From a virus, in the UHGV virus genome UHGV-0318153: a stretch of 64,000 nt of DNA. One strand, written 5' to 3'. Shown here piece after piece: positions 621 to 62,977 of the stretch (position 1 is its first letter; each line of letters starts with the position of its first letter). A program made the translations under genes and the position numbers. The notes beneath the pieces were generated by a model. The model was not told where the DNA came from, ran no database searches, and saw nothing but the letters and a program-made list of their open reading frames with translations.

Positions 621-947
621 ATGAAACAGAAAAAAGAAAAACCTGAAACTCCAGCTCATGTATTAGCTTTATCCAATGTTGTTAGAAACAATGCTAATAT
701 TAGAGGTATCATTATTGAATATCTGAAAAGATGTTTTGGTGAAGATGTAAATGTATCTTTATTGACAGATAGATTTGTTATTATTAAAGATGGATTTAAA
801 CAAGAATATCGTTATAATAATAAGCAATTTCTTGAATGTTTTGCTGCTGCTTTTGATGAATTTAGTAATAGAACTGCTGTTTTGTTAGATGAATTTATTG
901 CTAAAGAAGTCAAACGTAGCTTGCCCGTAGAGGATAACGCTAAATAA
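621..947 (+). CDS. hypothetical protein (108 aa); C-terminal tail encoded by a dispersed-repeat copy (SLPVED)
   Basis: ATG ORF in the co-directional gene array; ORFs of this length are unlikely by chance in an AT-rich genome. Confidence 0.5.
   Translation: MKQKKEKPETPAHVLALSNVVRNNANIRGIIIEYLKRCFGEDVNVSLLTDRFVIIKDGFKQEYRYNNKQFLECFAAAFDEFSNRTAVLLDEFIAKEVKRSLPVEDNAK
917..935 (-). repeat. dispersed GC-rich element copy, B orientation (AGCTTGCCCGTAGAGGA)
   Basis: cgtagcttgcccgtagaggat; translated SLPVED. Confidence 0.9.
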
Positions 948-955
948 TATAATAT

Positions 956-1162
956 ATGATTAATCTTTTTATATTAAGTACACTTATTGTTATTGTTTTA
1001 GTTATGTTTATTATAAGTGTATTTGTTATATATTGTATTGTATCTGATATTCGATATGGTCGAGATATTGCACGATTTGATATTATAGCATTAATTGTTA
1101 GTATTATTGTAATTTTTGCTACTATAAATGGTATTATTAAATATATTGATTTATGCCTATAG
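956..1162 (+). CDS. small hydrophobic (2-TM-like) protein
   Basis: 68-aa ORF dominated by I/L/V/F stretches. Confidence 0.35.
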   Translation: MINLFILSTLIVIVLVMFIISVFVIYCIVSDIRYGRDIARFDIIALIVSIIVIFATINGIIKYIDLCL

Positions 1163-1310
1163 AATATGTAAAAACTATTGATAAAGAAGAAAATACTATT
1201 AGTATTGATTCTGATATTGTTAATAAAGATATGTCAGAAATAGATGTTGGCGAACTTTATGAAGATTATGTTAGCGAAGATAATGCATTTGGTTTTAATG
1301 ATTAAATAAA

Positions 1311-1760
1311 ATGAATATGAAGAAAGTTGTTATGGTTGCCATTCCCTACGGGCAAGCTGTTGTAGCTAAAACTAATAAAGAAAAGTTTTTAGATGCTATT
1401 GATTGGATTGAAGATTTTTGTAAAAAGTATGATGCAGATAGAACTGGTTTTCTTGAAGCTGTTGTTAAAGCTCAAGAATGTCCATTAAGTTATGCTTATT
1501 TGCTGTCAATCCTCTACGGGCAAGCTACAATAGCTAAAGATATGACAAAAGATGAAATCAAATATGTTAATTGCGTTGTTAATGATGCTATTAATACTAT
1601 TGTGAAAATCAATAAATCTTTATGTCATCATATTAATAATAGTATGAGCGAGTTTAACAAAATTGCTGATAATAATATTAATGAAATAATGGATAGATTT
1701 AAAGATATTCCAACTGATATTCTTGAAGCTATTGTAAAAAAAAGAAAATCTGAAAAATAA
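1311..1760 (+). CDS. hypothetical protein (149 aa) containing two in-frame dispersed-repeat copies (IPYGQA / ILYGQA)
   Basis: ORF; repeat copies at 1342-1358 and 1510-1529. Confidence 0.5.
   Translation: MNMKKVVMVAIPYGQAVVAKTNKEKFLDAIDWIEDFCKKYDADRTGFLEAVVKAQECPLSYAYLLSILYGQATIAKDMTKDEIKYVNCVVNDAINTIVKINKSLCHHINNSMSEFNKIADNNINEIMDRFKDIPTDILEAIVKKRKSEK
1342..1358 (+). repeat. dispersed element copy, A orientation, TTCCCTACGGGCAAGCT subtype
   Basis: translated IPYGQA. Confidence 0.9.
1510..1529 (+). repeat. dispersed element copy, A orientation (TCCTCTACGGGCAAGCTACA)
   Basis: translated ILYGQAT. Confidence 0.9.
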
Positions 1761-1764
1761 TTAT

Positions 1765-1983: not shown

Positions 1984-1997
1984 AATATATATTGATT

Positions 1998-5713: not shown

Positions 5714-5733
5714 TTCCCTACGGGCAAGCTACA
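5714..5733 (+). repeat. dispersed element copy, A orientation, intergenic (just 3' of a stop, 5' of terminator)
   Basis: ttccctacgggcaagctaca. Confidence 0.9.
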
Positions 5734-5804: not shown

Positions 5805-6095
5805 ATGGCAAAAAATTATGATGAAGTAAGTGTTATCAAAGCACTGAAAGCAATTAATGGAATTAAAATTGTAACTAATGACAAAATTGTTAGAATTAGT
5901 AAAGGCACAAGAATGAGTAATTCTGTATCTGGAAAAATTGATTACTTATGTAATTACAAAGGATATACAAGAATTATGACAGATGATGAAGCAATTGAAG
6001 TTCAGGATAGCTTGCCCGTAGAGGATAGAAAGGCAAACAAACGTGCTATGAAACAAGCTATAATGACTAATAATAAGAAACAATATAAGAGATAA
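5805..6095 (+). CDS. hypothetical protein (96 aa) with an in-frame repeat copy (SLPVED)
   Basis: ORF. Confidence 0.45.
   Translation: MAKNYDEVSVIKALKAINGIKIVTNDKIVRISKGTRMSNSVSGKIDYLCNYKGYTRIMTDDEAIEVQDSLPVEDRKANKRAMKQAIMTNNKKQYKR
6008..6026 (-). repeat. dispersed element copy, B orientation
   Basis: tagcttgcccgtagaggat; translated SLPVED. Confidence 0.9.
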
Positions 6096-8480: not shown

Positions 8481-9757
8481 TAAGAATAGAATGTTATGAT
8501 GTGGAAGTACTTCCTAACTTTTTTAGTATTTGTTTTATTGATTTAGCTAGTTATCTTGATACTTTTAAAGATGTTGTAGATAGTAAAGGAAAACCAATTC
8601 CTATTATCCAAAAAATATCTGTTAAAGAGTTATTACAAAGACTTGATGCTGTAAAATGTAAACAATTTTATATTACAGATAAAGATGATAGTCAGTTATT
8701 TTCAATGATAGAATATATTAATGGATTTAAAGCTAATGAACTTTATCCTCGTAGTGATTTATATGGTTATAATAGTCAAAGTTATGATAATCTTATGATT
8801 GCTGCTTTATTAATGTATTTTGGTCAAACAGATACTACAAAAGAACTTATTACAAAACTTTATGAAACATCAAAAAAGATAATTGAATTACAAGACAATA
8901 AAGATGGTGCTAAGAATGATTTTTTATTAAGAAGTTTGAGAAAATATCCATTACCATTTAAAGGTGTAGATGTTATGAAAATATTTGCTTTGAATAAAGC
9001 TGGAACTATTGTTGATAATAAAACTGGAGAAAAGAAATATGTTCCTAAAGGTTTAAAGCAAACTAGTATTAATCTACAATGGTATGAACTTCTTGAATAT
9101 GAGTTACCTGATATATGTGATAAAGATTATTACTATTATGCAAAAGATACAAGATATAAAGGTTATGATTATAAAAAGCTCACCAATATAATTGATAAAT
9201 GGGATAGATATATAATAGATGAATATATTCCAGATATGATGCATTATAATAAAAATGATGTATTTATTGTTTGTGAAATTGTTCGTCTTAATCCCGATGA
9301 AATTAAATCTCGATATGCTGTTTCTGCTTCTTATAAAGTAGATGTTCTTAATAGTAGTCGTAGTAATATGGCTAATGTTTTATTTCAAAAGTTTTACACT
9401 AAATATAGTGGTATTCCTTATGAAAAATGGAAAGATGGAAGAACTAAAAGAACTGCTATGAATTTAGGTAAGATTATTTTTAATTGTGTTGAATTTAAGA
9501 CACAGCAATTACAAGACTTACTTAAAGAAATAAAAAAGACTACATTATATAGAGTTAGCAAAGATGCTTTTGAGAAAGAAGTTATTATTGGCGATGTTAA
9601 TTATACTCTAGCTACAGGTGGACTTCATAGTAAAGATAGACCAATGGAGATATGGAGTACAACAGATTGGGATATATCTGGCAATTCCTCTACGGGCAAG
9701 CTACAAAAAGATAATGCTTTTACAATTATACATTGGGACATAAGTGACGCAGTGTCG
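8477..9757 (+). CDS. family-B DNA polymerase, exon 1 (3'-5' exonuclease domain and N-terminal half; ends inside motif A ...DAVS)
   Basis: Exo I-like YDVEV, Exo III-like YNKNDVF; terminates in D-A-V-S with the YPSIM remainder of motif A beginning the ORF at 10807. Confidence 0.75.
9685..9705 (+). repeat. dispersed element copy, A orientation, inside DNA polymerase exon 1
   Basis: ttcctctacgggcaagctaca; translated SSTGKLQ (a different frame from the LYGQA copies). Confidence 0.9.
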
Positions 9758-11847: not shown

Positions 11848-13204
11848 AACATATATTGATATAGCTAATAAATGGAGAGAAAATAAATGTAAAGGTTGTT
11901 GCATACTTCTTGAACCTTATAATCCTGCTATATTAATAGAATATATAATGAAAAGAAGTATAGAAAAAAATCCAAATATAAAAGCACTTATTGTAGTTAA
12001 AGATTATGATGTTAGAACTCGTATTGTCAATTATTTAAAAGAAAACAATATAAGTCCTAATAATTATGCTTGTATTACTTCTGTTTATGTAAAAATAGGT
12101 GTACATTATGATTATGATATAGCTTTTTATGTTGGATTAACTGATATGTATCAAGCAAATTATATTAATAGTATAATTAAATATGGATTATTTATTATAA
12201 CAACAGATAAAATTCATCCTGATTCTCGTGCTTATCTTTATAAATATTTTCCTATATTAAATCAAGCTGATTATGCTGCTAAATATGCAACTAAATATAG
12301 CTTGCCCGTAGAGGAAATTCACATTGGAGTACAGTTTGCTAGACAAGATGAAAAAGAATTATATGATAAATATAGTGATTATATAAATAAAACTATTAAT
12401 ATATTTGGTAGCCTTGAAAATATAAATCGTGCTAGAGTAGGAGATAAAACTACAGGTCAATCTGCTGAAGCTGTAAGATTATCTATTGCTCAATATAATG
12501 GTTGGAATGAACATCTTGATGTAACTATACCTTTTAATAAGCAAATAGATGATTTATTTAATCCTATTAGTATAGAAGAAAGATGTTCTACTGCTTATAA
12601 TATTTTTCGTGAACGTAATAATTTAGTAAATAATAATGTAAATAAAATACCTATAATTATAGATTTATTAAATGGAGAATTAAAAGATAAAAAAGTAATA
12701 ATAGTTAGTAAGAATACTATTCTTGCAACAGAAGTTTATAAAGCTCTTAATAAAAATAATATACCATGTGGTGAATTTCATAATGATATTGAAGCTAGAC
12801 CTGTTTATGATGAAAATGTTGGAGATTTTATAAGATATAAGACTGGTAATCGAAAAGGAGAAGTAAAAAACTTCGCCGCACAAGCTATTTCCAGCCTTTC
12901 TGTGCAATCTTTCAACTCAAACAATATTAGAGTATTATCCATTAAAAATTGTTCGTCAGACAGCCTAGAAATCACGTGTGATGCGATTATATTCATGTCA
13001 CCAAATTGTTATAATATAAAAGAGTTCCTATATAGATATAATAAACTTACTTTTAATGTTGATAAAATAAAAATCTATAAATTATATATGATAGGTACAA
13101 ATGAAGAAAATGATTGTAGTCGGCTAAAACCTATTAATGAAAATCATGAAATAAAAAATATTACAGAGAATGAAAAATATTATGTTCAAAGTTTTGGTAG
13201 TTAA
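11840..13204 (+). CDS. hypothetical protein (454 aa), possibly ATPase/helicase-like; locally GC-elevated segment at 12870-12990
   Basis: long ORF; no clean catalytic motif recognised. Confidence 0.5.
   Translation: MNKTYIDIANKWRENKCKGCCILLEPYNPAILIEYIMKRSIEKNPNIKALIVVKDYDVRTRIVNYLKENNISPNNYACITSVYVKIGVHYDYDIAFYVGLTDMYQANYINSIIKYGLFIITTDKIHPDSRAYLYKYFPILNQADYAAKYATKYSLPVEEIHIGVQFARQDEKELYDKYSDYINKTINIFGSLENINRARVGDKTTGQSAEAVRLSIAQYNGWNEHLDVTIPFNKQIDDLFNPISIEERCSTAYNIFRERNNLVNNNVNKIPIIIDLLNGELKDKKVIIVSKNTILATEVYKALNKNNIPCGEFHNDIEARPVYDENVGDFIRYKTGNRKGEVKNFAAQAISSLSVQSFNSNNIRVLSIKNCSSDSLEITCDAIIFMSPNCYNIKEFLYRYNKLTFNVDKIKIYKLYMIGTNEENDCSRLKPINENHEIKNITENEKYYVQSFGS
12297..12316 (-). repeat. dispersed element copy, B orientation
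   Basis: atagcttgcccgtagaggaa; translated SLPVEE. Confidence 0.9.
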
Positions 13205-16274: not shown

Positions 16275-17459
16275 ATGAGAAGAAGTGTGAATAATAGTAT
16301 TATTACTAAAGAACTTATACTATCTAAAGTTAGTCAAATAAGTATATTTGCAGCTTATACAGGACTATCTATTGAAACTATTCAAGATTGTATAGATAAT
16401 AATACTATGATTTCTAGTCCTTTTCGCATTGATGAACATCCCAGTTTTGGTTTTAGATATGATAATAGAAATAAACTTAAAGGTCGTGACTTCGCCGGGT
16501 ACTTTTGGGGTGATTGTTTTGATGCAGCCGCTTTTGTACTTTCTGCTAATAATCAATTTATTAATGTTAGCGAGAAACAATATTTTAGACTTGTTTTAAA
16601 TCATATAGCAAATACTTTTAAACATATAATTTATGGAACAGAAAAAGATGAAAATATTAATAATGAAATACAAGTTGGATTAAATATAATTCGTAATAGA
16701 AAAAATGTTATAGAACTTGTAATTCGTAATTGGGAAGATTATGATATAAATTATTGGAAACAATTTGATATAGATATTAGTTTACTTAATACTAATTTTG
16801 TTTATCCTATTGACCAATTTTATATTAATCGTAATATTAATCCTGAACCTAAATATTATCATAATAAAAAAGATTTATGTTATGGTTATATATTAGGACA
16901 AGATAAACATGGAATATATAACATTAAACTTTATTTTCCTAATCGTAAAAAAGGTGATGTTAGATTTATTACTAATTGTAATCATATTGAAGGTGTTCTT
17001 AATTTTAATACAAACGATAAATATGATTATATAATTATAACTAAATCTACTAAAGATAGACTTGCTTTAAAAAGTTATTTAAGCAAGACTACTATGTCAT
17101 CATTCCTCTACGGGCAAGCTACAATAGGCTTAATTAATATTCCATGTGAAAGTTATAAATTAAAAGATAGAGAGTATGAATATCTTCTTAATAATATAAA
17201 AGATAGATATAATATTATTAGTCTTATGGATAATGATATGGCTGGTAAAAAAGAAGCTATATGTTTAAAGAAGGAATTCAATATTACTCCTATACTTATT
17301 CCTAAAGAATATGAATGTAAAGATTTTGCTGAATTAAGACAAAATTATTCTATACAAGTTATTGACAATTTATTTAAAGACGTAATAAATTATATACAAG
17401 AAGATGAAAACATTGAAATTGATTGGAATACGGAAGAGAGCAATACTTTGCCGTTTTAA
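16275..17459 (+). CDS. DnaG-like DNA primase (Toprim)
   Basis: N-terminal SSPFRIDEHPSFGF resembles the CPFHxExTPSF primase zinc-binding region; Toprim DxD motif LMDNDMAGKKEA; C-terminal ...EESNTLPF; in-frame repeat copy (FLYGQAT). Confidence 0.6.
   Translation: MRRSVNNSIITKELILSKVSQISIFAAYTGLSIETIQDCIDNNTMISSPFRIDEHPSFGFRYDNRNKLKGRDFAGYFWGDCFDAAAFVLSANNQFINVSEKQYFRLVLNHIANTFKHIIYGTEKDENINNEIQVGLNIIRNRKNVIELVIRNWEDYDINYWKQFDIDISLLNTNFVYPIDQFYINRNINPEPKYYHNKKDLCYGYILGQDKHGIYNIKLYFPNRKKGDVRFITNCNHIEGVLNFNTNDKYDYIIITKSTKDRLALKSYLSKTTMSSFLYGQATIGLINIPCESYKLKDREYEYLLNNIKDRYNIISLMDNDMAGKKEAICLKKEFNITPILIPKEYECKDFAELRQNYSIQVIDNLFKDVINYIQEDENIEIDWNTEESNTLPF
17103..17123 (+). repeat. dispersed element copy, A orientation, inside primase
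   Basis: ttcctctacgggcaagctaca; translated FLYGQAT. Confidence 0.9.
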
Positions 17460-19511: not shown

Positions 19512-19943
19512 ATGGCAAAGAATGTAAGATTTAATTTTGTAAAACGTAGCTTGCCCGTAGGGGATGTCAAGAAGGCTAAACCTACACAAAAGATAACAGG
19601 AGATATTAATCTTGAATTTGAAGTTATATCTAATAAAGTATTTGATAGAAATAAAAGTTATTATTCAGTATTTTTTCAAAGTGTAATTATATTTACTGAT
19701 TATAAAGCGAAATCATATCAAATATTACATAAATATGATGCTGAAACTAATGAACGAAGTTATTATGTTTGTCTTTATAAAGATAAAGTTGATAATGCTA
19801 TTCCATTAGTTAGAGATTATACAGGTGGATATAAAATTTATACTAAAGATATATTTTATGATATAACACAAGATACTAATATAGATGTAAAATTAGTTCA
19901 AGAAAGAGAAAATCCTAATTGTATTATTTATAAAATACGATGA
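19512..19943 (+). CDS. hypothetical protein (143 aa) with in-frame repeat copy (RSLPVGD)
   Basis: ORF. Confidence 0.45.
   Translation: MAKNVRFNFVKRSLPVGDVKKAKPTQKITGDINLEFEVISNKVFDRNKSYYSVFFQSVIIFTDYKAKSYQILHKYDAETNERSYYVCLYKDKVDNAIPLVRDYTGGYKIYTKDIFYDITQDTNIDVKLVQERENPNCIIYKIR
19547..19565 (-). repeat. dispersed element copy, B orientation (GGG variant)
   Basis: tagcttgcccgtaggggat; shares extended aaacgtagcttgcccgtag with copy at 917. Confidence 0.9.
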
Positions 19944-27967: not shown

Positions 27968-27986
27968 TTCCCTACGGGCAAGTTTC
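27968..27986 (+). repeat. dispersed element copy, A orientation, immediately 3' of the giant ORF stop
   Basis: ttccctacgggcaagtttc. Confidence 0.85.
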
Positions 27987-44100: not shown

Positions 44101-47077
44101 TATTCATCCATGTATTATCTACTATTTCTTTACTAAATCCTAATTCTAATAATTTATTTAATATTGCTTCTTTATTATTATTAGCAAATTGAGCAAATTC
44201 ATTATCATTTAATTCATCAATATTAATATTAGAAGCAACAGCAATACTATCTAATTGATTATATAATTCTTCAGAAGCAGCATCATATAATTCATTTTCA
44301 CTTAATTCAGCAAGATTAAGAGTTGGCTGTGCTGTGGCTGTAGTAGCATTATCCTCTACGGGCAAGTTACTGCTAGCTTTATCATCTTTAGTATCTGTTG
44401 CAACTGGAGCAACTTCAGGCGTTATAGTAGTTTCAGGAGTTTCTGATGTATCAGTCGTTGCATCTTCTTCTAGCTTGCCCGTAAAGGATGTGATGCCATC
44501 ATCAACAGGCTTGCCATCTAATTCTGGTACATCATCATCTTTATTTACAGTTTCATCATAAGCAACTTGTCTATTTAATTCTTCATCTATAAACTCTTTT
44601 TGTAATTCAAGATTGTTTAAATCATATTCGGCTTCTTGTAAAACTTTTAAAGATGTATTATAAGCATCTGCATCTTTTTCTTCCATATTGGCAACATCAA
44701 AATTATCTCTATATTTTCTATATAAATCATTTTGAGTTTTAATAGCATTGTTTATAATTTTTCTTCTACTTTCATCAAGAACATTTCTAAGTTCTGTTAC
44801 TCTTTTCTTTAAAGCTGGTTCTGTCAAATCAACACTCTTTTCATTTAATCTATAATTCAAGTCATTATCAAACTTTCCATATATAGTATTAAATTCATCA
44901 GAATAATTATCACGAACTTTCTTTGCAGTATCAATTATTTGTTTGTCATTTACAACACCATTTTCATCATATAAATCAGCTGGTTGTATTTTTTCTAATT
45001 GTTTCTTTTGATTTTCTAATTCATCTAATAATTGTTTCTTTTCTCTTTTTGATAAATTAGCATCAGTTTTTGTATTAAATATTTGATTTTCAATAGCACG
45101 TATTCTATTTCTATAAACAAGTTTTTCAATAGCAGAAACATCTTCTTGACTAATATTTATATTATCATCAGCCATTACTTTATTATATAAATTATCATTA
45201 TATAACTTCAATGTATCATATAATTGTTTTTTATTATTTTCTTCTACTAATTGTCTTGCTATAATACGACCAATATCAAAATTACCACCAACTTTATTTA
45301 CTTTATCAAATACATTCAAATACAATTTTTTTGTATTATCAAGTCTTTCAATAAATTGTTTTTGTAATTCTAATGCTTCATTATCTTTAAGATTAAGTTT
45401 TTCTTTAAATCCTTTTGCTATATTTGTATCTCTAGCAAATTCTTCTAACAATTCAAGATTACCATTATCAATAGCATCTATTATCATTCCATCAAAATAA
45501 GAATTACGAGCAAGTTTTTCTAGTTCTTGACGTTCTGTATCATTGGTAATATCGGCAGCAACTTGATTTCCTTCAGCATCTTTAATTGTTATATAAGGGT
45601 TTTTATTTTGATTAATACTATTAATAGCTTCATTATATCTTTGAAAATGTAATTGTCTATTTAGTATTTCTTGTTTCTTTTTATCTTCAGCATTTGTCCA
45701 TTCTTTATTTAGCTTTCTTTGAATAAATTCGCCAGCAGCATCAGCAGCACCACTAAATACTACACCACCAATAACACCCCAAAAAGCTGACTCCCACATC
45801 ATTGGGTCTTTAAGATAATCTTTAACAGTCTTAATATCAGTATCTTTATCAAAAGCAAGTTTAGCTAATTCCATACCTTTTTCACTACCGATATAGTTTA
45901 TAGCTTCTTCTATACCTTCTGTCCATTCATTACGAGTGCCTGTTGCAATACCATAGCCAATATCTTTTATCTTATCTATTGCTTTATCTTTAAAAGTAGT
46001 TTTAGCTATTGCTTCTTGTATAACAGCAGCTTCATCGCCAAATTTTGCAGCAGCAGCCTTATTAAGTTTTTGTAATTTTCTAGTATTACTACCTTGTAAT
46101 GCTTTTGACCACATATTCTTTAATCCATATACTTGTGCTATATCAAACATAGTATTCCATAGATTAAAATCAAAACTTTCATCTCCTGCATTATTTGCTA
46201 TATCTTTTGCTATTTCTTCATTTGTTTTATTTGCATATTCTGGATTGTTTTTATCAAATTCAGCACGTTGCTTAGTGTCCATACTATTAAGTTCTTTAAT
46301 AGCATAATCATAAGCATTTTGACTAGTTTGATTAGCTTCTTGATAATTTTCTAACATGCGCATTGTAATACCAGTCTTAGTAGCATCTATACCTTTAGCA
46401 GCAAGTTCTCTAGTTTTCTCTGATAATTTCAATACATTTGCTAATTTATTACCAGCTTTATTAATACTAAGTAAACTACCAATTTTAGATAATCCTTTAC
46501 TAACTCCAACTCCAGGAACCATTAAAGTTAAACTACTAGCTATACTAGGAGCATTACTAGCCCACCATGCAAAATCTGTAACATCAAATGCTTTAGTTGG
46601 GTCTTCTTTATATATCGGCATTTGTTCATTAATAGACTCTTTAAATTGTGCAAGAGATTCTATAATATCAGGTCTTTCATAAGATAAATCTCCATCCATT
46701 GCATCTATTAATATAGAAGCTAAATCAGCAGCACCTAATACAGTTCCTGTTGTTATTTCATTTAATGTTTGACCAATAGCATAAGCACCTTGTTCAAATA
46801 CAGATTGATTATTAGCACGTTCTTTATTTAATTCTTCAACTGTATTAACAGGATTAACTGTAACATCATATTCTGTATATTTAGTTGGGTCGCCTAAATA
46901 ACTAAGTCCATATTGATTAGGTATAACATTTTCTAATATATTGGATGCAAAGTCATCACGTTTATTATAATCTGTATTAACAATAGAAGGAGGCTCTAAA
47001 GCCCCCTTTTTAGTTTTAGGATTATATTCTGGATTAGGTCTTTTATCTTTACCTTTAATAATATCTATTATGTTCAT
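41150..47077 (-). CDS. giant 1975-aa acidic virion protein with HExxH (zincin-like) motif and a Thr/Asp-rich low-complexity linker
   Basis: IIHESLHKQLD encoded near 41815-41850; linker TDTSETPETTITPEVAPVATDTKDD... carries two repeat copies. Confidence 0.55.
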   Translation of the reverse strand: MNIIDIIKGKDKRPNPEYNPKTKKGALEPPSIVNTDYNKRDDFASNILENVIPNQYGLSYLGDPTKYTEYDVTVNPVNTVEELNKERANNQSVFEQGAYAIGQTLNEITTGTVLGAADLASILIDAMDGDLSYERPDIIESLAQFKESINEQMPIYKEDPTKAFDVTDFAWWASNAPSIASSLTLMVPGVGVSKGLSKIGSLLSINKAGNKLANVLKLSEKTRELAAKGIDATKTGITMRMLENYQEANQTSQNAYDYAIKELNSMDTKQRAEFDKNNPEYANKTNEEIAKDIANNAGDESFDFNLWNTMFDIAQVYGLKNMWSKALQGSNTRKLQKLNKAAAAKFGDEAAVIQEAIAKTTFKDKAIDKIKDIGYGIATGTRNEWTEGIEEAINYIGSEKGMELAKLAFDKDTDIKTVKDYLKDPMMWESAFWGVIGGVVFSGAADAAGEFIQRKLNKEWTNAEDKKKQEILNRQLHFQRYNEAINSINQNKNPYITIKDAEGNQVAADITNDTERQELEKLARNSYFDGMIIDAIDNGNLELLEEFARDTNIAKGFKEKLNLKDNEALELQKQFIERLDNTKKLYLNVFDKVNKVGGNFDIGRIIARQLVEENNKKQLYDTLKLYNDNLYNKVMADDNINISQEDVSAIEKLVYRNRIRAIENQIFNTKTDANLSKREKKQLLDELENQKKQLEKIQPADLYDENGVVNDKQIIDTAKKVRDNYSDEFNTIYGKFDNDLNYRLNEKSVDLTEPALKKRVTELRNVLDESRRKIINNAIKTQNDLYRKYRDNFDVANMEEKDADAYNTSLKVLQEAEYDLNNLELQKEFIDEELNRQVAYDETVNKDDDVPELDGKPVDDGITSFTGKLEEDATTDTSETPETTITPEVAPVATDTKDDKASSNLPVEDNATTATAQPTLNLAELSENELYDAASEELYNQLDSIAVASNINIDELNDNEFAQFANNNKEAILNKLLELGFSKEIVDNTWMNTISAFTDDLAVFGDNNQLQSAISESDRVLLKNATLSIIKKKPNKKQRHIIAILEEFAKKQADNGKTYGRTIKGKTYINADTLTQYIYNLSNNRLVAEFLYDEIKSFIYSKNNTEYVLTDNDTILNLSKEQYKNRLLTLTSREKAKLEEYIPNNANIDDTDFETITKLNPGDELEYEYDTYLGRIILRKDGNFVGYLGVPQIDNEGVYRTTNEGWLYDIALNESFAKSKLKDFILKVFTEPTEDLESALRAFAFSRNKKDDVKIYRDQIFTELSSYPEFINFRQTLSEIQEEAEKQIENIVMHIGKLYARVAADNFNIEESVNNWFNKLANSYAQAHVVATKKAKGKFVIDKLYKGTINLSDPKDKSKLNNITKVIDDYNEDKYPLVTITKPNNLQFANSLVPNIVNGYPIVGMTMIAIPRENGQTSYAYCYQKELSSNDISPFGKQLIDATQEELKNIITRFISDNTYSFKQFSNDVFALTGNSGLININVKPGRRGNSIGFQTKDNKWLFSIYDDASGRKLQINSIEDTKYNITDKARGATIRTINDEYIQNELKKNINNLFTNATIGIPFSFINDKVKIPVATKYYKRENGKTIISVGKVSKEFNSYQDFLVSNNFLSTNLQNLPKNEDNTISGIFHKTNLTTVQVVFKADETSWVNTANLLDNKVNAEFVIKQLAINKTNNALREMFRNNNEVLEYIEALERIGILPEVINIDNIIDTEAKPIYALYDINTKEITLNGNRIGNMNYGRLIRTIIHESLHKQLDTIYNKEKALNIIEDIYNRYKQYVEELEKKEPNNEDLPYLKQFIDISQDRDINLEEFLVESLTNRDLMSALNKIPASSRFKDKVKNLFQELLLVIADMLGIEVDRNSLLYREMMLLNKITKSRSKRTQPKKVIQTTLDFKDEQDINKVEEEKQEEINANNVQEDNNVEDDFADDRFAFSSIDERQITNFNSVVNNISPSLQATARQMLTTGELSMYCM
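44351..44370 (+). repeat. dispersed element copy, A orientation, in the low-complexity linker of the 1975-aa protein
   Basis: atcctctacgggcaagttac; reads NLPVED. Confidence 0.85.
44471..44489 (-). repeat. dispersed element copy, B orientation (GTAAAGGA variant), same linker
   Basis: tagcttgcccgtaaaggat; reads FTGKLE. Confidence 0.8.
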
Positions 47078-49732: not shown

Positions 49733-51937
49733 TTATTTATTTAATATATAATCCATTATTTCTTGCGGTATCTCTTTGTATCTTGCCCGTAGGGAACGCA
49801 ACACTTCTTCATCACGTAATCTAGCATTTCTATTTATCATATAATTATTAAGACTTCCGCCAATATTACTAAATAGATTACCAATACCAGCTGCATAATT
49901 ACCAAGTTGTGTTGTTCTAACATTATTATTAAATAATAGTTCTTTAATTAAATTGTTAGTATTAAATTGGTCTACGGCAAGTTTAGAATTTGCATTAAAT
50001 TGGTCTACTGCAAGTTTATTACCAATATTAGCCCTATCAACCATCATCTTCAACTGTGCTTTCTGCATTGCTTGTTGCGCTCTTGTAGTTAAGAATTGAT
50101 TATAAGTAGCAGCATTAGCTTGAGCAACTTGCTGTGCATTTAATCTATCTTTATTCATCAATTCTGTTTCTATATTTTCTTTCTGACCATAAACTTGATT
50201 TTTAGATTCTTGTGATTGAATAGCAGCACGTTGTTTTCTAGCTAATGCAACTCTACTACTAGAAGTATTTCTATCAATTTCATTCATAGTTCTTCTAGTT
50301 TCATCTTCAATTTTAGCTAATTGAGGGTTGGCATTATATCGAGTTTTAAGTTTAGCAGCAGCAACAGTAACAGGTGCTTCCAAATCTTTAATTTCAGCAA
50401 GTTTAATTTCAGGAAGATTGGCTAAAGTAGGAGCAGTCATTGTTGGTAAATCAACAGTTGGTATTTTACTATTTATAATAGCACTACTAATAAAATCAAT
50501 AGCACTTCCCCCTAAATTAGTATATAAATTAATTTTATCAAGATTGTTATTAAACCAATCAGTAAATCTATTAAATCTACTTGGTTTTGTATATTGTCTT
50601 GCTAAATTAATTGTATCAACATCTTCTATTTCTTTTGCCATGCTAGCCAAAGAAGGTCTTTTATAAACATCTTCTGTATATCTAGGAATAGAAATTTTAT
50701 CTGGTTGAGTATAAGGAACAGCTAAAGAAGTATCATTAACTATTGGTTTAACTAAATTATTAGTTGATTTTGCATTTGAACTAACAGTTCTTTTGGCAGT
50801 AGTTGATGTAGTTTTAGGATTATAAAAATATGTTCCAATATTACCAACATTTAATTGTGGAATACTAATTGTATTTGTATCAGATGTATTGTTTGCAGGT
50901 TTGCTTGTAGATTTATTTGATATAGTAATTGTGTCAGGAATATATTTTTCTTGAGCTTTTAACCAATCGACAGCTTTAATAGCATTTGTAATGCCATAAG
51001 GATTAGCTTTAGACAAATCAGCTGAAACAGGTACAGCTTCATTTCTTGCATCTACATAATATTTTTGCCCTTTATAATCAAAAGTATCTCCGATTTTATA
51101 TTTATCATTATTTATTCTAAAATCTGTACCAACTTTAGCTTTCTTTCTACCACCGCATTTCATGGTATGAATAAGTCCATTTTTTACATTTCCATTAATA
51201 GTTGTTATCATATTACCTCCATAATTAAATTTAGGATATATATTTAAATTTTTATAATTACGAGTAAAATCTAATCCATCTTGTATTGTATTTATTCTAA
51301 TAGTATCTCCTCTTTCTTCAGCAGATATTTGACCATCCCATTTATTATGTTTATATTTAGGATTAGTAAAATCATGTAATCCACCATTTATATTTTGCAC
51401 TTCTGGATAAATATAATTATTTCCATCTTTATCTGTGCCAACACTTAATTTATGTGTAGCAATTGCTCCAGGAATTTCCCAATCTTTAATATATTGTCTA
51501 TTATTTTGTTTTAATCTTTTAGCAAAATCTTTATCACTATTATTTATTTTATCTATTATATATTGTATATTATTTAATTTATTACCACCATTTCTATATT
51601 TTGTGCCATCATCTTTAATTCTATTTTTATCTTTAAAACTTTCTTGTGCATTAAACACAACATCAGGATTGGCACCACCAAGAACTAATTTAGCTGGAGA
51701 GCCTGCCCGTAGGAAAGGAACAGAACTAAATACTCTTACTTCATTAGGTTTCATCTGCATTACTTCTCCACCTTCAACTTCTAAATCTTTTCCAACATCA
51801 ACTCCACCATTAGAATGTTTACGTCCAGCAATATAATACATATTATTGCCTAAATCAATAGCTTTACCACCACGAATAATATTAGGTGTAATGGTACTAT
51901 TACTATTAATCGGTCTTACAATTTTATTCTTTCTCAT
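49733..51937 (-). CDS. structural hypothetical protein (734 aa) with coiled-coil C-terminal region and in-frame tandem KLAVDQFN duplication
   Basis: long ORF; tandem ~30-bp repeat at 49964-50023. Confidence 0.6.
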   Translation of the reverse strand: MRKNKIVRPINSNSTITPNIIRGGKAIDLGNNMYYIAGRKHSNGGVDVGKDLEVEGGEVMQMKPNEVRVFSSVPFLRAGSPAKLVLGGANPDVVFNAQESFKDKNRIKDDGTKYRNGGNKLNNIQYIIDKINNSDKDFAKRLKQNNRQYIKDWEIPGAIATHKLSVGTDKDGNNYIYPEVQNINGGLHDFTNPKYKHNKWDGQISAEERGDTIRINTIQDGLDFTRNYKNLNIYPKFNYGGNMITTINGNVKNGLIHTMKCGGRKKAKVGTDFRINNDKYKIGDTFDYKGQKYYVDARNEAVPVSADLSKANPYGITNAIKAVDWLKAQEKYIPDTITISNKSTSKPANNTSDTNTISIPQLNVGNIGTYFYNPKTTSTTAKRTVSSNAKSTNNLVKPIVNDTSLAVPYTQPDKISIPRYTEDVYKRPSLASMAKEIEDVDTINLARQYTKPSRFNRFTDWFNNNLDKINLYTNLGGSAIDFISSAIINSKIPTVDLPTMTAPTLANLPEIKLAEIKDLEAPVTVAAAKLKTRYNANPQLAKIEDETRRTMNEIDRNTSSSRVALARKQRAAIQSQESKNQVYGQKENIETELMNKDRLNAQQVAQANAATYNQFLTTRAQQAMQKAQLKMMVDRANIGNKLAVDQFNANSKLAVDQFNTNNLIKELLFNNNVRTTQLGNYAAGIGNLFSNIGGSLNNYMINRNARLRDEEVLRSLRARYKEIPQEIMDYILNK
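49779..49797 (-). repeat. dispersed element copy, B orientation (TATCTTGCCCGTAGGGAAC)
   Basis: gene reads RSLRAR, yet another reading frame. Confidence 0.85.
51701..51718 (-). repeat. degenerate dispersed element copy (GCCTGCCCGTAGGAAAGG)
   Basis: gene reads FLRAGS. Confidence 0.6.
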
Positions 51938-56178: not shown

Positions 56179-56999
56179 TATCCTCTAGGTTTAAATGTAT
56201 AATTATAAAAATAATTTTGCCATTCTTTAGTATCAATATCTCCTTGTATTGTATTAATAACACTTGCCTTAGCTTTACTCTTTAATTGCATCCACATATA
56301 ATAAGGATTAGTACCATATTGACTAGCATTAAGATTAAATACAGGATGTTTCATACCACGACATAACATCTTATACATACAATAATAAGCAAGTGCTTCT
56401 ATAAGATTGCCATCGTTTGGAATAACAGGTATTTCTTCTTGAAAATATTCACTATATTGAGTTTCAACTTCAAGATTTTCTATATAAATATAATCAGTAT
56501 TAAAATTTAATTCAATATGATTAGCATCTACTAGCACATAGTTTCTTTCCTCTACGGGCAAGATATAACGGTCAAATGTTATATTTCTTTTATTAATATC
56601 ATCATCGTTATTATGAACAGCAATACTTTCTCCATAAGTAACATCAGACATACCAGAAACTATAGACATTGTATCAGATAGTTCTTCATTATCTGTCTGT
56701 AGCTTGCCCGTAGGGAACTGACAGCCACAATCAACTTTGTCATTTATATTAGCAATAGCACATCCTCTTTTATCATAAACTTTTAATTCATTATTAATTA
56801 TATTACAAGGACTATATGCTATTCTATTATTAACATTAAGTTTTCGTTTTTTCTTAATAACAGAAAGTATTTTTAATTGTTGCATAGCATCAACACACCA
56901 TGCAGGAACTCTATTAATCCAATCACTATTATCAGGATTGAAATCGTTGTCTATTTTTGCGATTATAGACTCCATTGGTAAATTTGTCTTGTTCAGCAT
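56178..56999 (-). CDS. hypothetical structural protein (273 aa) carrying two in-frame repeat copies
   Basis: ORF. Confidence 0.5.
   Translation of the reverse strand: MLNKTNLPMESIIAKIDNDFNPDNSDWINRVPAWCVDAMQQLKILSVIKKKRKLNVNNRIAYSPCNIINNELKVYDKRGCAIANINDKVDCGCQFPTGKLQTDNEELSDTMSIVSGMSDVTYGESIAVHNNDDDINKRNITFDRYILPVEERNYVLVDANHIELNFNTDYIYIENLEVETQYSEYFQEEIPVIPNDGNLIEALAYYCMYKMLCRGMKHPVFNLNASQYGTNPYYMWMQLKSKAKASVINTIQGDIDTKEWQNYFYNYTFKPRG
56547..56567 (+). repeat. dispersed element copy, A orientation
   Basis: ttcctctacgggcaagatata; gene reads ILPVEE. Confidence 0.9.
56697..56718 (-). repeat. dispersed element copy, B orientation
   Basis: ctgtagcttgcccgtagggaac; gene reads FPTGKLQ. Confidence 0.9.
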
Positions 57000-58927: not shown

Positions 58928-58949
58928 TTGTAGCTTGCCCGTAGGGAAG
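58928..58949 (-). repeat. dispersed element copy, B orientation, immediately 3' of the fibre-repeat gene stop
   Basis: ttgtagcttgcccgtagggaag. Confidence 0.9.
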
Positions 58950-59436: not shown

Positions 59437-62400
59437 TTATTTAGTTATTACTGTTATTTTATTTGTATCAACATCAATAGATATAGAATATTTATCTGGA
59501 TTATCTACAGGTTTACCAGCTTTAGTAAATTGAATACCATTTTGCTCTATTAAATCTACTATATTTTTTGGTATTTCTTTTTCTTCATCAAATACTAATG
59601 TAGCCCAATAGAAAGGTTTACCATCTGTAGTACTTTCAATATAAAATCCATCATCTTTATCAGATTTCATAAATACAGCAACTCTATCATTTTTAGCAAC
59701 ATCGAAACTAAAAGAATTCGACATTACTATTTTAGGATTAACTCTATTTGCTTCAATAGTTGTTGCTGTTCTACTATTTGGTATTTCTGTAAAACTACCA
59801 TCTCCATTAATTTTAGCCCACCAAAATTCTACATTATTTACAGTAGATTGTTCGTTTCTAACAAGAAAACCGTATTCAGCACTTTCTACTTTTCCATCAA
59901 CAAGAAATTTATAATCTCCTTGTAATTTATCGGGGTCATAAGCTCCTGCATCTTGCCAGCTATTATCGTTTATAATATTTTTATCTCCGACTGTTTTTCC
60001 AATAGGAACTTTTGTGTCTGTACTATTACAAGTATATCTTAATGCAGCCATTCCTTTTGGAGTATAACAAGTAGTTTTTACATAACCTTTTTGATTTTCT
60101 ATAATTTTTGCATCATCATGTTCATTACTTATAATAAATACATGATTAAAACTTGGTGTTATATCTCCTTCAAAATCATTTAATATTAAACTAGTAGGTA
60201 TTTGAGATTCAATAGGATATAATATAATAGCAAATTCTTTAGCATCTGTTGGTATAGTTAATGAGCCTGATTTGGTATGTACTCCATTTATAACATCTTC
60301 TGTTATAAATATATCATCTGTAATTATCCAACCATTATTGAATACAGGTGAACTATTATTATAACTTAATACTTCTGGAGTAGGAGCTTCAAATTCATTA
60401 CCAATATATTTAAGTATAGATACTTTAAAAACATTATTTTTATCTGTAATTTTTACACTTGCTTTATATGTTTTTCCTTTACATAAATGAGTATCTATTT
60501 TATTATATCTTTTATAAATAGAAAATATAGGCAAATCAACACCATTATCTTTAATAATTAATTGATAATTATCAATTTTAATTTTAGCTTTTGATTTAAT
60601 GTTTATATGAACATTATCACCTAAATAAAAATCTTCATTGTCAGCTTCATATTCAGCTTTTGGATATATTAAATCTCTAGCTAAGTTTAGATTATTTACT
60701 CCATAATATTTATTATCAAAATTAATTCTATATCCTATAAATGTCATAAATGCAGCAAGAGCATTACCATAACCACTATCTTTTGTCATAGCTTGTAGCA
60801 TAATGCAAGATTTGCTTCCAATAGATATTAGTTCTTCATTAGCAAAATTACATTTAATACCAAAATGAACTCTAGTAAATGCTTTAGCTTGAATTTGTCC
60901 AAGATATAATTCTTTTCTTTCTTTATCACCTTGTTTATAATCAATTTGAACAAACATTGGGTTACCATATATATCTGTCATAAATTGATTATTATCATCC
61001 ATTAAACCAACTTGAATATTACCATCTTGTGTAACACCTGTTGCTGTTTCAAAAGGAGAACATTCAAAATAAACAGCAGCTAAAAAAGTAGTACCACCAC
61101 TAATATTAGGGCCATCTGTTGTAGATATATCTTGAATAACAAAAGATTTAGTATTTAAATCTTGATAAACAGCTTGTCCACCTTGAACTTTTAAATCACC
61201 AAAATATAATCTTTCTTTAGCATTTTTACTATTAATTAATTCATCTTCACCTAATGCAGCAAATATACCTTCTTCATTATCTTTAGAAGCAACAGACAAA
61301 TCAGCATCAATTATTTCGTTTCCTTCACTATCTTGACCAGCAGGAATAGCGGATATTCTAATACTACCATCAAGTGATTGTAGCATTTTAGATTTAAATG
61401 CTTTGTTCTGTATTTTATCTTTAAATACAAATGAAACATCTCCTAAAGCAATTCCTGTTTCATTAGCATCATCATCATGTTCAATGAATAATGGTTTTTT
61501 AAATTTTAAATTCTTTACTTCAGGAACAATATTTCCTTTTTCATCAGAAGTACCAATAGTAGAAACTTGAGTTTTAGCATGAGAAATAAATTCCCAACCT
61601 TGTTCATTCTTTAATGGAATAAAATATCCAGCATAGCTATTTTCTTTAAATATTATACTACTTTTAGTAGTAACACCTTCCATATGTTCTCCTTGAACTA
61701 CATCTATTTCAACACTACCTGTAGTTATACCTTTAGAATATAATACTTCAACCATAATTATTTGATTAGAAGTATAAGGAGGAAGAACTTGAGCAATATT
61801 TTGTCCTTCAGAAGTAATTTGATATACCATTAATAAAGTAGTTGCATCTTTAAATGGAGATTGTGTAAAATCTACAGCATTTACTTCTTCATATCTATTT
61901 GTATAAAATAAAGCTTTAATTTCATCAGCAGTTAATCCTTTAACAGCAGGATGTTGATTATTTTCTAAAGCAATAAAAGCTGAATTAGCTTTTAATAATC
62001 TATCAAAATTATCAGCTTTAACATTTGACAAATCAGCAGCAGCTAATTTAGCATCAATACCTTTATCATATAATTTAGCTAAATCAACATCTTCTAAATC
62101 ATTTTTAGCAAGATTAGCATTTTTAATTGCATTATCTAATTTTGTTGATAATTGTTTAACTATTTCTGCATCAACTTTATTAGATAATACTTTTGCTATT
62201 TCTGTTGATATATCATTTGGTAAATTATTATTAATAGCTTTTGTTACAGCATTTGTAACATCAACAGATAATTCATTTTGTATAATTGGAGAAACAATAC
62301 CTTTTAAATTCAAAGCTAAATATTTATCTACAATAGACTTTATTTCATTTGGGTCTATAGTTTGTGTAGCTATATCGTCTCCATATAATATAACATCAGC

Positions 62401-62745
62401 TATAGCATAATCTTGAAGATTACGAACATCAGCATTTGCTGTAATACTAATATCTAATTCTTGTTTAATGTATTTACCTAATATATCTTCTGGGGTTGTA
62501 AATCTATTACCTTCAATACTTACAGTTCCAGATTTAAAATTAGGAACAATATGCAATATAACTAAATTATATTTAATAACACAATTGGTTAATACACCTT
62601 TATTTATTTCAAATTCAAAAGGAGTATTTGGATTAGTATAAACTTTACCTTTAAAATGAATACTAGTAGGGTCTATAGGTAATCCATTATCTTTTCTAAA
62701 TTGCAAACCAATATATTGGTCACTAAGAGTTGCAATACTTTTCAT
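59437..62745 (-). CDS. large tail fibre/spike-like structural protein (1102 aa)
   Basis: long ORF adjacent to the fibre-repeat protein. Confidence 0.55.
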   Translation of the reverse strand: MKSIATLSDQYIGLQFRKDNGLPIDPTSIHFKGKVYTNPNTPFEFEINKGVLTNCVIKYNLVILHIVPNFKSGTVSIEGNRFTTPEDILGKYIKQELDISITANADVRNLQDYAIADVILYGDDIATQTIDPNEIKSIVDKYLALNLKGIVSPIIQNELSVDVTNAVTKAINNNLPNDISTEIAKVLSNKVDAEIVKQLSTKLDNAIKNANLAKNDLEDVDLAKLYDKGIDAKLAAADLSNVKADNFDRLLKANSAFIALENNQHPAVKGLTADEIKALFYTNRYEEVNAVDFTQSPFKDATTLLMVYQITSEGQNIAQVLPPYTSNQIIMVEVLYSKGITTGSVEIDVVQGEHMEGVTTKSSIIFKENSYAGYFIPLKNEQGWEFISHAKTQVSTIGTSDEKGNIVPEVKNLKFKKPLFIEHDDDANETGIALGDVSFVFKDKIQNKAFKSKMLQSLDGSIRISAIPAGQDSEGNEIIDADLSVASKDNEEGIFAALGEDELINSKNAKERLYFGDLKVQGGQAVYQDLNTKSFVIQDISTTDGPNISGGTTFLAAVYFECSPFETATGVTQDGNIQVGLMDDNNQFMTDIYGNPMFVQIDYKQGDKERKELYLGQIQAKAFTRVHFGIKCNFANEELISIGSKSCIMLQAMTKDSGYGNALAAFMTFIGYRINFDNKYYGVNNLNLARDLIYPKAEYEADNEDFYLGDNVHINIKSKAKIKIDNYQLIIKDNGVDLPIFSIYKRYNKIDTHLCKGKTYKASVKITDKNNVFKVSILKYIGNEFEAPTPEVLSYNNSSPVFNNGWIITDDIFITEDVINGVHTKSGSLTIPTDAKEFAIILYPIESQIPTSLILNDFEGDITPSFNHVFIISNEHDDAKIIENQKGYVKTTCYTPKGMAALRYTCNSTDTKVPIGKTVGDKNIINDNSWQDAGAYDPDKLQGDYKFLVDGKVESAEYGFLVRNEQSTVNNVEFWWAKINGDGSFTEIPNSRTATTIEANRVNPKIVMSNSFSFDVAKNDRVAVFMKSDKDDGFYIESTTDGKPFYWATLVFDEEKEIPKNIVDLIEQNGIQFTKAGKPVDNPDKYSISIDVDTNKITVITK

Positions 62746-62752
62746 AATAATA

Positions 62753-62977
62753 TTAAGATTTTGGCGTTAATTTTCCATTTATTTCATCTAACTTATCATT
62801 AATAGCTTTTATATCATCTTTAGTTGCAATATTATCCTTATTAGCTATTTTTGTTAATAATTTGATTACTTGTGTACAAAATACAGTCCAATTCATAATT
62901 ATAGCATTTAATTGATTAATACTAATATAATGATAAGTCATTGTAGCTTGCCCGTAGAGGAATACATGACTTATCAT
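62753..62977 (-). CDS. small hypothetical protein (74 aa) whose N-terminus is encoded by a repeat copy
   Basis: short ORF; may be spurious. Confidence 0.25.
   Translation of the reverse strand: MISHVFLYGQATMTYHYISINQLNAIIMNWTVFCTQVIKLLTKIANKDNIATKDDIKAINDKLDEINGKLTPKS
62941..62962 (-). repeat. dispersed element copy, B orientation
   Basis: ttgtagcttgcccgtagaggaa. Confidence 0.9.

Follow-up and report, generated by a model that had tools for sequence, protein, structure and literature searches.

We found that the 64-kb window analyzed here, the 64,000 nucleotides of the virus genome UHGV-0318153, carries 27 copies of a GC-rich word of about 20 bases, and that this motif is one lineage dialect of an element common to the crAss-like phages of the Intestiviridae. 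The copies can be read as an array of asymmetric sites acting in cis, recognized by a sequence-specific DNA-binding factor that is probably encoded by the phage and linked to a RepL replicon, and we give this reading about an even chance of being correct. A binding site of a phage protein was one of several options named in the initial annotation of this DNA, and it is the option that the sequence comparisons favor. As that annotation had supposed, no previous description of the motif in crAss-like phages was found in the literature searched by sequence string and keyword (some of the keywords were poorly targeted). The motif is not mentioned in the phage-plasmid study of Carjivirus communis (PMC10983915) or in the 2023 Crassvirales review (PMC10136315).

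A search with TCCTCTACGGGCAAGCT, allowing up to three mismatches, gave 26 matches in the window and 0.00 in 100 dinucleotide-preserving shuffles, the composition control for the claim that the word recurs beyond chance. The core CTACGGGCAAG with at most one mismatch recovers a further, decayed copy at 51702 and brings the total to 27, 13 on the plus strand and 14 on the minus strand, in agreement with the number and orientations first reported. The exact core is present in 25 of the 27 copies, and 26 of the 30 TACGGG hexamers in the window, the GC content of which is 25–30%, belong to the motif. The consensus, (A/T)TCC(T)CTACGGGCAAGCTACA, is asymmetric, with an informative stretch of about 20–21 positions, aTcCtCTACGGGCAAGCTAca. 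Both length subtypes that had been noticed (CATTCCTCTACGGG and CATTCC-CTACGGG) and both decayed copies, placed near 32910 and 51701, were recovered, the latter at 32911 and 51702. A supposed tandem of near-copies at 49964-50023 turned out to be something else, a direct repeat of about 33 bp, ATTAAATTGGTCTAC(G/T)GCAAGTTTA, with partial resemblance to the motif, being like its core with one G missing.

Up to about 28 kb the genes of the window are on the plus strand, and beyond that they are on the minus strand. The copies are mostly inside open reading frames (ORFs), as had been stated, with 18 of the 27 borne by ORFs (11 sense, 7 antisense), but the nine intergenic copies represent a 4-fold enrichment given that only about 7% of the window is non-coding. 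Intragenic copies sit in variable linkers and at gene termini, and 13 of the 27 lie within 100 nt of a gene boundary, compared with an expectation of 23%. The motif is read in three sense frames and one antisense frame, which agrees with the frame usage originally described. Three copies immediately behind stop codons, noticed before, were confirmed (5714, 27968 and 58932); a fourth exists at 62945, and all four are in the sense orientation relative to the upstream transcript.

Single copies do not form a hairpin: in all dialects and on both strands the minimum free energy is 0 to −1 kcal/mol, no better than that of shuffled sequences, and the window dialect disrupts the putative stem. An intrinsic hairpin or UNCG-like stem-loop was therefore rejected. 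The window has no Rfam match at the gathering threshold and no tRNA or tmRNA, which rules out a known RNA family or a tRNA-derived sequence there. A host repeat was also rejected as the source, since a 19-mer of the motif, searched across 185,579 species genomes, was found only in a mis-binned copy of the same phage and in one chance match. The mis-binned copy consists of contigs CAAECB010000035.1 and CAAECB010000037.1 (21.5 and 63 kb), which are 90–96% identical to the window and were assigned to the metagenome-assembled genome "Clostridia bacterium HGM13660". In an IMG/VR scan with a 14-mer, the matches listed were mostly single chance occurrences.

The window comes from a Crudevirinae crAss-like phage and shares synteny with C. 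communis, the prototypical crAssphage, at about 73% nucleotide identity where the two can be aligned, and IMG/VR holds relatives that are 93–99% identical. Counting the motif in related genomes revealed that it is not peculiar to the window genome and is found family-wide, in lineage-specific forms. C. communis has 31 copies with the consensus CCATCCTC[T/C]ACGGGG[G/A]GT (core CCTC[CT]ACGGGG), and Delmidovirus cr110_1 and cr11_1 have 26 copies each with the consensus TCCTCTACGGGGGGTCTC. The cultured ΦcrAss002 (Churivirinae), which infects B. xylanisolvens, has about 30 copies with the consensus CTCCT[T/C]TA[C/T]GGGGGAA, also written CTCCTYTAYGGGGGAA or CCTYTAYGGGGGAA, its dialect word being given as CTCCTTTACGGGGGAA as well. 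Further crAss-like contigs of 90–98 kb carry CCTCTACGGG followed by CAAG, GGAG, GGAT or CGGAG. Both orientations are used in all four groups (window, C. communis, Delmidovirus and ΦcrAss002). The dialects are exclusive per genome: the window contains 25 CTACGGGCAAG cores but no word of the GGGG[AG]G type, and the other genomes show the converse.

Window copies are short forms only, unlike those of C. communis (BK010471), which has about seven long forms (6021, 28078, 28172, 44954, 58728, 93668 and 95864). In these, 25–50 bp of mini-hairpin DNA, GC-rich and of the form (AGCGN)n, separate the motif from a following CTAC-TAAT. They look like GC-rich DNA placed between two CTAC repeats, and two of the seven or so are in-frame parts of genes. 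The Intestiviridae motif was not found in the first 50 kb of ΦcrAss001 (Steigviridae, MH675552). The same 50 kb (positions 1–50000) is enriched in a different word, CTCCAGAAG(G), with 14 exact CTCCAGAAG in both orientations and 17 copies of CTCCAGAAGG at up to one mismatch, which may be an analogous element in another crAss family.

Orthologous positions keep their sites even though the sequence of these sites shifts, in concert, from lineage to lineage. For nine of the 27 window copies, C. communis has a copy of the same orientation within ±45 nt, compared with about 0.4 expected. Delmidovirus likewise shares nine window copies, and ΦcrAss002 shares those in the SNF2 ATPase and primase genes; each orthologous copy follows the dialect of its own genome. 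Antisense copies are kept as well, for example the SNF2 site and the LPVEE site of the giant RNA polymerase. Translation of the primase copy gives ..LYG.. in the window and C. communis but ..PLRGV.. in Delmidovirus, and the second copy in the tail-tubular gene encodes TPRGGY in C. communis and LPVEE in three other genomes. Because the same orthologous site is read in different frames across genera, it is the DNA rather than the peptide that is conserved, as the initial annotation had argued from the window.

Conservation between close strains leads to the same conclusion. Between C. communis BK010471 and the strains ZA and C0531BW4, which are 96% identical overall, the core CCTC-ACGGGG differs at 6 of 600 positions (1.0%) and the flanks at 164 of 3360 (4.9%; Fisher P=1e-6). 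Between the window and four close relatives, the core CTACGGGCAAG differs at 8 of 506 positions (1.6%) and the flanks at 123 of 2714 (4.5%; Fisher P=0.0013). The core is thus 3–5 times more conserved than its flanks and under purifying selection whatever the reading frame. The difference is significant only in this per-position test of the core; for the whole word of about 21 nt against the flanks it is not (P=0.12 and P=0.88).

Most of the copies that can be tested are not insertions. A protein alignment of the giant RNA polymerase from five genomes places copies 39271 (VSSTGKLQP) and 34180 opposite DSNGNII, AANGDII and LSNGKVI without a gap. Copy 39271, gap-free against motif-less orthologues, thus arose in place, and in the giant polymerase gene generally the gap-free alignments show gain or loss of sites in place. 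The LYGG copy of C. communis and ΦcrAss002 aligns with VLYGD of the window, where the same amino acids are specified by AT-rich codons. Copy 39093 of C. communis is also aligned without gaps, and copy 19548, in ORF 19512-19943, shows no indel against the motif-less Delmidovirus protein. These alignments show that new sites can arise by substitution in coding DNA that tolerates SSTG, LYG, LPVE or PLRG.

These observations bear directly on the in-frame mini-insertion (Rickettsia palindromic element or yeast mitochondrial GC cluster) put forward in the initial annotation. In its general form, this explanation holds that the motif represents either the entire body or only the terminal inverted repeat of a selfish miniature element, of the types just named or of the MITE (miniature inverted-repeat transposable element) or REPIN type, which inserts in frame, is tolerated, and owes its uniformity to recent copying. 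A mobile origin may apply to some copies. Copy 30489 of C. communis is a clean insertion of 7 amino acids (21 bp), and the long forms of that phage, with hairpin DNA between two CTAC repeats, may also have originated in this way. Convergent motif pairs bracket variable gene inserts; that of the tail-tubular gene comprises 53 amino acids in the window, 71 in C. communis, 56 in Delmidovirus, about 25 in ΦcrAss002 and none in ΦcrAss001. Each genome has a single uniform dialect, close pairs are nearly always inverted, and one presence/absence difference among C. communis strains is patch-like. The latter lies in gp63, a tail protein (BK010471 ~68480-68520), where BK010471 has a perfect motif and ZA and C0531BW4 have ACCTCGACAGG, 9 nt fewer. 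A 9-nt indel and about eight substitutions fall within 30 nt between nearly identical flanks in a hypervariable loop, so that either a patch-like gain or loss or the variability of the loop itself accounts for the difference.

As a general explanation we nevertheless consider the selfish element unlikely. Gap-free replacements of ordinary coding sequence (SSTGKLQ against SNGKVIP, LYGG against LYGD) are not insertions, and every window copy covered by the relatives at 93–99% identity is present there, with no presence/absence polymorphism. Copy-and-paste does not predict orthologous positions across genera and subfamilies with a switch of dialect, nor a core under purifying selection while the interiors of the inserts diverge freely. 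Even spacing of the loci (see below) and the lack of a hairpin in single copies also speak against it, and no transposase, RAYT or HUH gene appeared in the Pfam/PHROGs scans.

The loci, at a mean density of roughly one per 3 kb along the whole genome, are spaced evenly. Once copies less than 500 bp apart had been merged they were over-dispersed in the window, C. communis and cr110_1 (coefficient of variation 0.43–0.47, P<=0.0004), with the largest gaps below expectation, although the simulated controls were not merged alike, which slightly favors even spacing. Inverted neighbors lie closer together than direct ones (medians 1.6 and 3.0 kb vs 4.2 kb, P=0.001 and 0.012). By hand count in the site lists of the window, C. 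communis and Delmidovirus, 11 close pairs are inverted and one is direct, namely copies 1342 and 1510, 167 bp apart. Orientation tends to alternate, changing 21 times out of 30 in C. communis (P=0.02) and 22 out of 29 in ΦcrAss002 (hand count). Because part of the sites are orthologues of one another, the genomes do not count as independent tests.

Tight pairs are of two kinds: divergent pairs, which are intergenic palindromes, and convergent pairs, which are intragenic and bracket variable inserts. An invertible coding segment (shufflon) was rejected for the tail-tubular pair, because flipping the DNA between the inverted copies gives stop codons and destroys the reading frame in three of four genomes. 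The intergenic inverted cluster of four copies, reported earlier and confirmed at 25962-26143, consists of the palindromes P1 and P2, and equivalent pairs are present in all compared genomes. P1 and P2 flank two AT-rich repeats of about 22 bp and lie 270–450 bp upstream of a RepL-like ORF. The region looks like an origin or operator region with the repeats as iterons. The RepL-like ORF (26417-27229) matches RepL gp43 of C. communis (tblastn, E=1e-5), and jackhmmer groups it with gp43, gp88 and the Delmidovirus paralogues.

The link with RepL is not confined to the window. Eight of 16 tight inverted pairs (<=200 bp) lie within 800 bp of a RepL-like gene, compared with 5% expected (binomial P=4e-7, the pairs being partly orthologous and hence not independent). 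Of the divergent pairs, seven of nine are near RepL by hand count, whereas the convergent intragenic pairs are all far from it. In C. communis, which has been proposed as a P1-like phage-plasmid with two RepL genes, a pair stands directly upstream of a RepL gene, where others predicted an origin (PMC10983915). The palindromes close to RepL in that genome are located at about 28.1–28.2 and 95.7–95.9 kb. Hi-C data of the same phage show one genome segment in contact with all other loci, which the authors attribute to linear ends (PMC10983915); the contacts could equally represent bridging between the palindromic cluster and the dispersed sites. Next to the RepL-like ORF, a 67-residue ORF at 27226-27429 is conserved in Delmidovirus (jackhmmer E=8e-28 after iteration), where it adjoins a motif pair too. 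No family could be assigned to its product, a candidate small DNA-binding protein.

An arrangement of this kind might also be expected if the copies were places where an enzyme acts on the DNA, that is, nicks of the T5, tf or phiKMV type, primer or replication starts on both strands, recombination hot spots, or pac-like packaging starts of a circularly permuted genome. Such sites would suit the even spacing over both strands and the trend towards alternating orientation, as well as the position of the clusters beside iteron-like repeats and RepL-like replication genes. What looks like a group I intron, carrying a GIY-YIG endonuclease, begins about 55 bp downstream of the polymerase copy, and ΦcrAss002 has been described as terminally redundant and circularly permuted (PMC10136315). 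However, the T5-type nick sites suggested in the initial annotation are difficult to reconcile with inverted copies as little as 25–45 bp apart, which would turn nicks into double-strand breaks, and with the even split of 13 and 14 between the strands, since known nick systems are single-stranded in their placement. Cleaved hot spots tend towards loss by conversion rather than conservation, and known DnaG-type primases recognize trinucleotides. Enzyme action sites seem to us no more than a slim prospect.

We think it less probable still that the motif is a transcription signal for the giant RNA polymerase (a T7-like promoter, a pause or a terminator) or an element acting at the RNA level. Its length of about 20 bp and its division into a conserved core and a lineage-specific part mirror the promoters of the T7 group, the post-stop copies are all sense to the upstream transcript, and a sense-oriented copy is located 270–550 bp upstream of RepL-like genes. 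On the other hand, many intragenic copies are antisense (7/18 in the window, 10/21 in C. communis), and antisense copies are conserved at orthologous positions (SNF2 and the LPVEE site of the RNA polymerase). The distance to start codons is not fixed, no T-run follows the palindromes P1 and P2, and neither an Rfam match nor structure in single copies was found.

Passive homology blocks, or linker sequences, for RecT-mediated exchange of modules between co-infecting relatives are the least probable explanation and very hard to sustain: the phage encodes RecT, many copies lie at gene or domain boundaries, and BLAST high-scoring segment pairs between genera often stop at the motif, but thirty 20-bp repeats, scattered and facing both ways, would also cause lethal rearrangements within the genome, those three large indels that could be positioned against close relatives are not on motif copies but ~340 bp, ~100–190 bp and 1.9 kb away, and the dialects are exclusive, with no foreign-dialect copies marking imported modules.

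Table 1 Copies of the motif and associated features in the 64-kb window of UHGV-0318153, with their counterparts in related phages
Feature	Position	Strand	Form and context	Counterparts
Motif copy	918..934	−	Exact 17-mer; antisense, in 3' end of ORF 621-947	
Motif copy	1342..1358	+	Short subtype TTCC-CTACGGGCAAGCT; sense, 31 nt past ATG of ORF 1311-1760	
Motif copy	1510..1526	+	Exact; sense in ORF 1311-1760	
Motif copy	5714..5730	+	Short subtype; intergenic, 8 nt past stop of ORF 5382-5705	C. communis 6021+ (approximate position)
Motif copy	6009..6025	−	Exact; antisense in ORF 5805-6095; makes a convergent pair with 5714 (distance 300 bp)	
Motif copy	9686..9702	+	Exact; sense in DNA polymerase B exon 1	C. 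communis 10168+, cr110 12072+, cr11 93484+
Motif copy	12299..12315	−	Exact; antisense in SNF2 ATPase gene (SLPVEE)	Orthologous copy in 5/5 compared genomes, including ΦcrAss002
Motif copy	17104..17120	+	Exact; sense in DnaG-type primase gene (LYGQAT)	C. communis, cr110, ΦcrAss002; other frame (PLRGV) in Delmidovirus
Motif copy	19548..19564	−	1 mismatch; antisense, 36 nt past ATG of ORF 19512-19943	
Motif copy	20963..20979	+	Short subtype; sense, N-terminal extension of zinc-finger ORF 20934-21347	Delmidovirus (position)
Palindrome P1	25962..26012	.	Divergent pair (25962-25978 −, 25996-26012 +), 17-nt spacer; intergenic	
Two iteron-like direct repeats, ~22-bp, AT-rich, AATTTAGTTATTRTTRATATT	26033..26078	+	Between P1 and P2; read from sequence	
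Palindrome P2	26078..26143	.	Divergent pair (26078-26094 −, 26127-26143 +), 32-nt spacer containing palindrome ATAGCTAGCTAT	
RepL-like ORF	26417..27229	+	~270-450 bp downstream of P1/P2; candidate partner	
Motif copy	27968..27984	+	Short subtype, 3 mismatches; intergenic, 11 nt past stop of giant RNA polymerase ORF 27996-41018; marks junction of the two gene blocks	
Decayed copy TCCACTACGGGCAAGAT	32911..32927	+	Antisense in giant RNA polymerase ORF	
Motif copy	34180..34196	−	Exact; sense in giant RNA polymerase ORF (SSTGKLQ)	
Motif copy	35632..35648	+	Exact; antisense in giant RNA polymerase ORF (SLPVEE)	C. communis 36949+, cr110, cr11
Motif copy	39271..39287	−	Exact; sense in giant RNA polymerase ORF (SSTGKLQ)	
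Convergent pair	44352..44488	44352-44368 +, 44472-44488 −	In ORF 41150-47077 (RNA polymerase-associated protein)	Pair also in Delmidovirus
Motif copy	49780..49796	−	Short subtype, 3 mismatches; sense, near 3' end of ORF 49733-51937	
Decayed copy, core CTACGGGCAGG	51700..51716	−	Sense in ORF 49733-51937	
Convergent pair	56548..56717	56548-56564 +, 56701-56717 −	In tail-tubular gene 56178-56999	
Motif copy	58932..58948	−	Short subtype; intergenic, 4 nt past stop of ORF 58953-59414	
Motif copy	62945..62961	−	Exact; intergenic, 27 nt past stop of ORF 62989-63339	C. communis 63704−

Two variable regions of the window lie near listed copies (Table 1). The DNA polymerase B gene is divided into ORFs 8477-9760 and 10825-11847 by about 1.07 kb (9760-10825) that carries the GIY-YIG endonuclease ORF 10077-10763 (Pfam E=1.3e-9). 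One relative is without 10040-10750, i.e., the endonuclease part. The interruption resembles a group I-type intron whose homing endonuclease is optional. At 62755-62843, about 100–190 bp from copy 62945, one relative has about 1.5 kb of extra intergenic DNA.

Dispersed arrays of recognition sites are already known, and the crAss motif fits the defining features of none of the named families, although it resembles several of them. Uptake signal sequences (USS) of Pasteurellaceae are evenly spaced, as is the motif. Like these and the DNA uptake sequences (DUS) of Neisseriaceae, the motif has a short asymmetric core within an extended consensus and occurs in both orientations and in many copies in permissive genic regions (PMC3630211). 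Intergenic DUS are often non-overlapping inverted pairs able to form stem-loops, which P1 and P2 recall, and DUS dialects mirror phylogeny and evolve together with their receptor, ComP (PMC3630211). The motif dialects are similarly exclusive per genome, with copies that arise in place by substitution, and as in DUS and USS a stop codon in some frames limits where the word can be placed. The uptake words, however, number in the thousands and serve bacterial natural transformation via a type IV pilin, whereas the crAss motif has about 30 copies in a phage genome of 64–97 kb with no known uptake process. Nothing here points to ComP-type competence, as the carrier is a phage and bacterial species genomes lack the 19-mer apart from the two matches mentioned above.

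Among phages, the cluster A mycobacteriophages such as L5 and Bxb1 have 20–30 asymmetric 13-bp stoperators over a genome of about 50 kb, bound by a monomeric repressor (PMC6550527, PMC9283540). Binding of this immunity repressor blocks the elongation of transcripts. Stoperator variants are subcluster-specific and co-vary with the repressor, and syntenic sites are found in related phages (PMC6550527, PMC9283540). With 27 asymmetric copies in 64 kb the motif is alike in number and form; its dialects are lineage-specific and exclusive, and no repressor gene was found in the Pfam/PHROGs scans of 29 ORFs. The motif differs in that stoperators point with transcription (PMC6550527), whereas intragenic motif copies face both ways (sense to antisense 11:7 in the window and 11:10 in C. 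communis), and in that two-thirds of the motif sites are inside ORFs.

The tight divergent pairs beside RepL-like genes are reminiscent of two further systems. The C1 operators of P1, each 17 bp long and asymmetric, are scattered through a phage-plasmid genome as single sites or as overlapping inverted pairs, one operator controlling the kilA-repL operon. DnaA boxes, which are asymmetric 9-mers, cluster at the origin and the initiator gene and are dispersed elsewhere. But P1 operators stand at promoters and are not evenly spaced inside ORFs, and unlike initiator boxes the motif does not track an initiator, given that ΦcrAss002 has no detectable RepL and that one to three paralogues go with one dialect. 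Promoters of the T7 group, about 17 copies of a word of about 23 bp at conserved positions, have a lineage-specific part that co-evolves with the phage polymerase, and they are a precedent for selection-driven concerted change of dispersed sites. All of them point with transcription and lie between genes, whereas the motif uses both orientations and is mostly inside genes.

Rickettsia palindromic elements, MITEs, REPINs and mitochondrial GC clusters share with the motif a short GC-rich sequence in an AT-rich genome, in-frame positions in genes, inverted pairs that bracket inserts and, in one copy, a clean 21-bp insertion. They differ in that window copies 39271, 34180 and 19548 and C. communis copy 39093 are gap-free, insertions being limited to C. 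communis copy 30489 and the tail-tubular insert. They differ further in that single motif copies are not palindromic, that copies are not polymorphic in close relatives except in the hypervariable tail-protein loop of C. communis, and that positions are conserved across subfamilies with concerted sequence change and a core under purifying selection. T5, tf and phiKMV nick sites are on one strand, unlike the motif. Chi sites are 5–8 nt long, read by RecBCD or AddAB and co-oriented with replication, whereas the motif has a core of 10–12 nt plus an extension and no strand bias; the phage encodes a Gam-like nuclease inhibitor.

We favor the recognition-site array because its features combine as they do in known site arrays that co-evolve with their reader. 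These are a family-invariant asymmetric core with lineage extensions, dialect switching at fixed positions, origin in place, frame-independent purifying selection, even spacing, and palindromic doublets at replication-initiator genes. On this reading the 27 copies would be recognized as sequence, not structure, by one factor, and natural selection would keep the sites at about one locus per 3 kb genome-wide. The reader protein would be expected to co-evolve with its sites, by analogy with the polymerases and promoters of the T7 group, the repressors and stoperators of cluster A, and ComP and the DUS dialects. The RepL-proximal palindromes might act as origin or operator, and the dispersed single sites might extend the action of the same protein over the genome. 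Candidate actions are silencing or roadblocking in a carrier or plasmid state, titration of an initiator, and bridging, partition or compaction of the replicon.

Several observations weigh against the recognition-site array. Two-thirds of the sites are in ORFs and in both orientations, which is unusual for transcription regulators and unlike stoperators, and the spacers of tight pairs, 14–34 nt, are unlike those of a fixed dimer operator. A copy mechanism is hinted at by the clean insertion at C. communis copy 30489 and by the single patch-like gain or loss within the species in gp63. Among close strains, conservation of the lineage-specific 3' extension does not exceed that of the flanks, and the uniformity of the extension within each genome could also come from a copying process. 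As for the reader, Crudevirinae have one to three divergent RepL paralogues per genome and only one dialect, and jackhmmer did not detect a RepL-like ORF in ΦcrAss002 despite its roughly 30 copies. RepL is therefore a weak candidate for the reader and was rejected as a universal one. The Pfam/PHROGs scans of 29 distinct ORFs, the palindrome neighbors included, revealed no helix-turn-helix protein, repressor or regulator and returned only the GIY-YIG endonuclease, DUF932, a Gam-like protein, a dUTPase and a tail ring protein. The crAssphage "IHF-like" proteins are poor candidates because they match the tail ring protein family.

We also put forward, more tentatively and as a proposal that we think is rather less than likely, that Intestiviridae crAss-like phages, the prototypical crAssphage among them, possess a previously undescribed "self-tag" system that spans the genome. 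Its reader, a phage protein co-evolving with about 30 evenly spaced asymmetric sites, would be one that controls the RepL replicon at the palindromes and organizes, silences or partitions the genome in a non-lytic carrier or plasmid state. The dialects would then be a barrier of incompatibility, immunity or recombination between co-resident crAss lineages.

Among the viruses of the human gut the crAss-like phages are the most abundant, and their replication, non-lytic persistence and gene regulation are largely unknown. A lineage-specific cis-element at about 30 positions is a concrete handle on all three. The motif can be used as bait for the reader protein and tested in the cultured ΦcrAss002, it points to candidate origins or operators beside the RepL genes of the proposed phage-plasmid C. 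communis, and it is a simple sequence signature for the classification of Intestiviridae lineages. Should silencing, partition or immunity prove to depend on the sites, this would help to explain the long-term non-lytic persistence of crAssphage.

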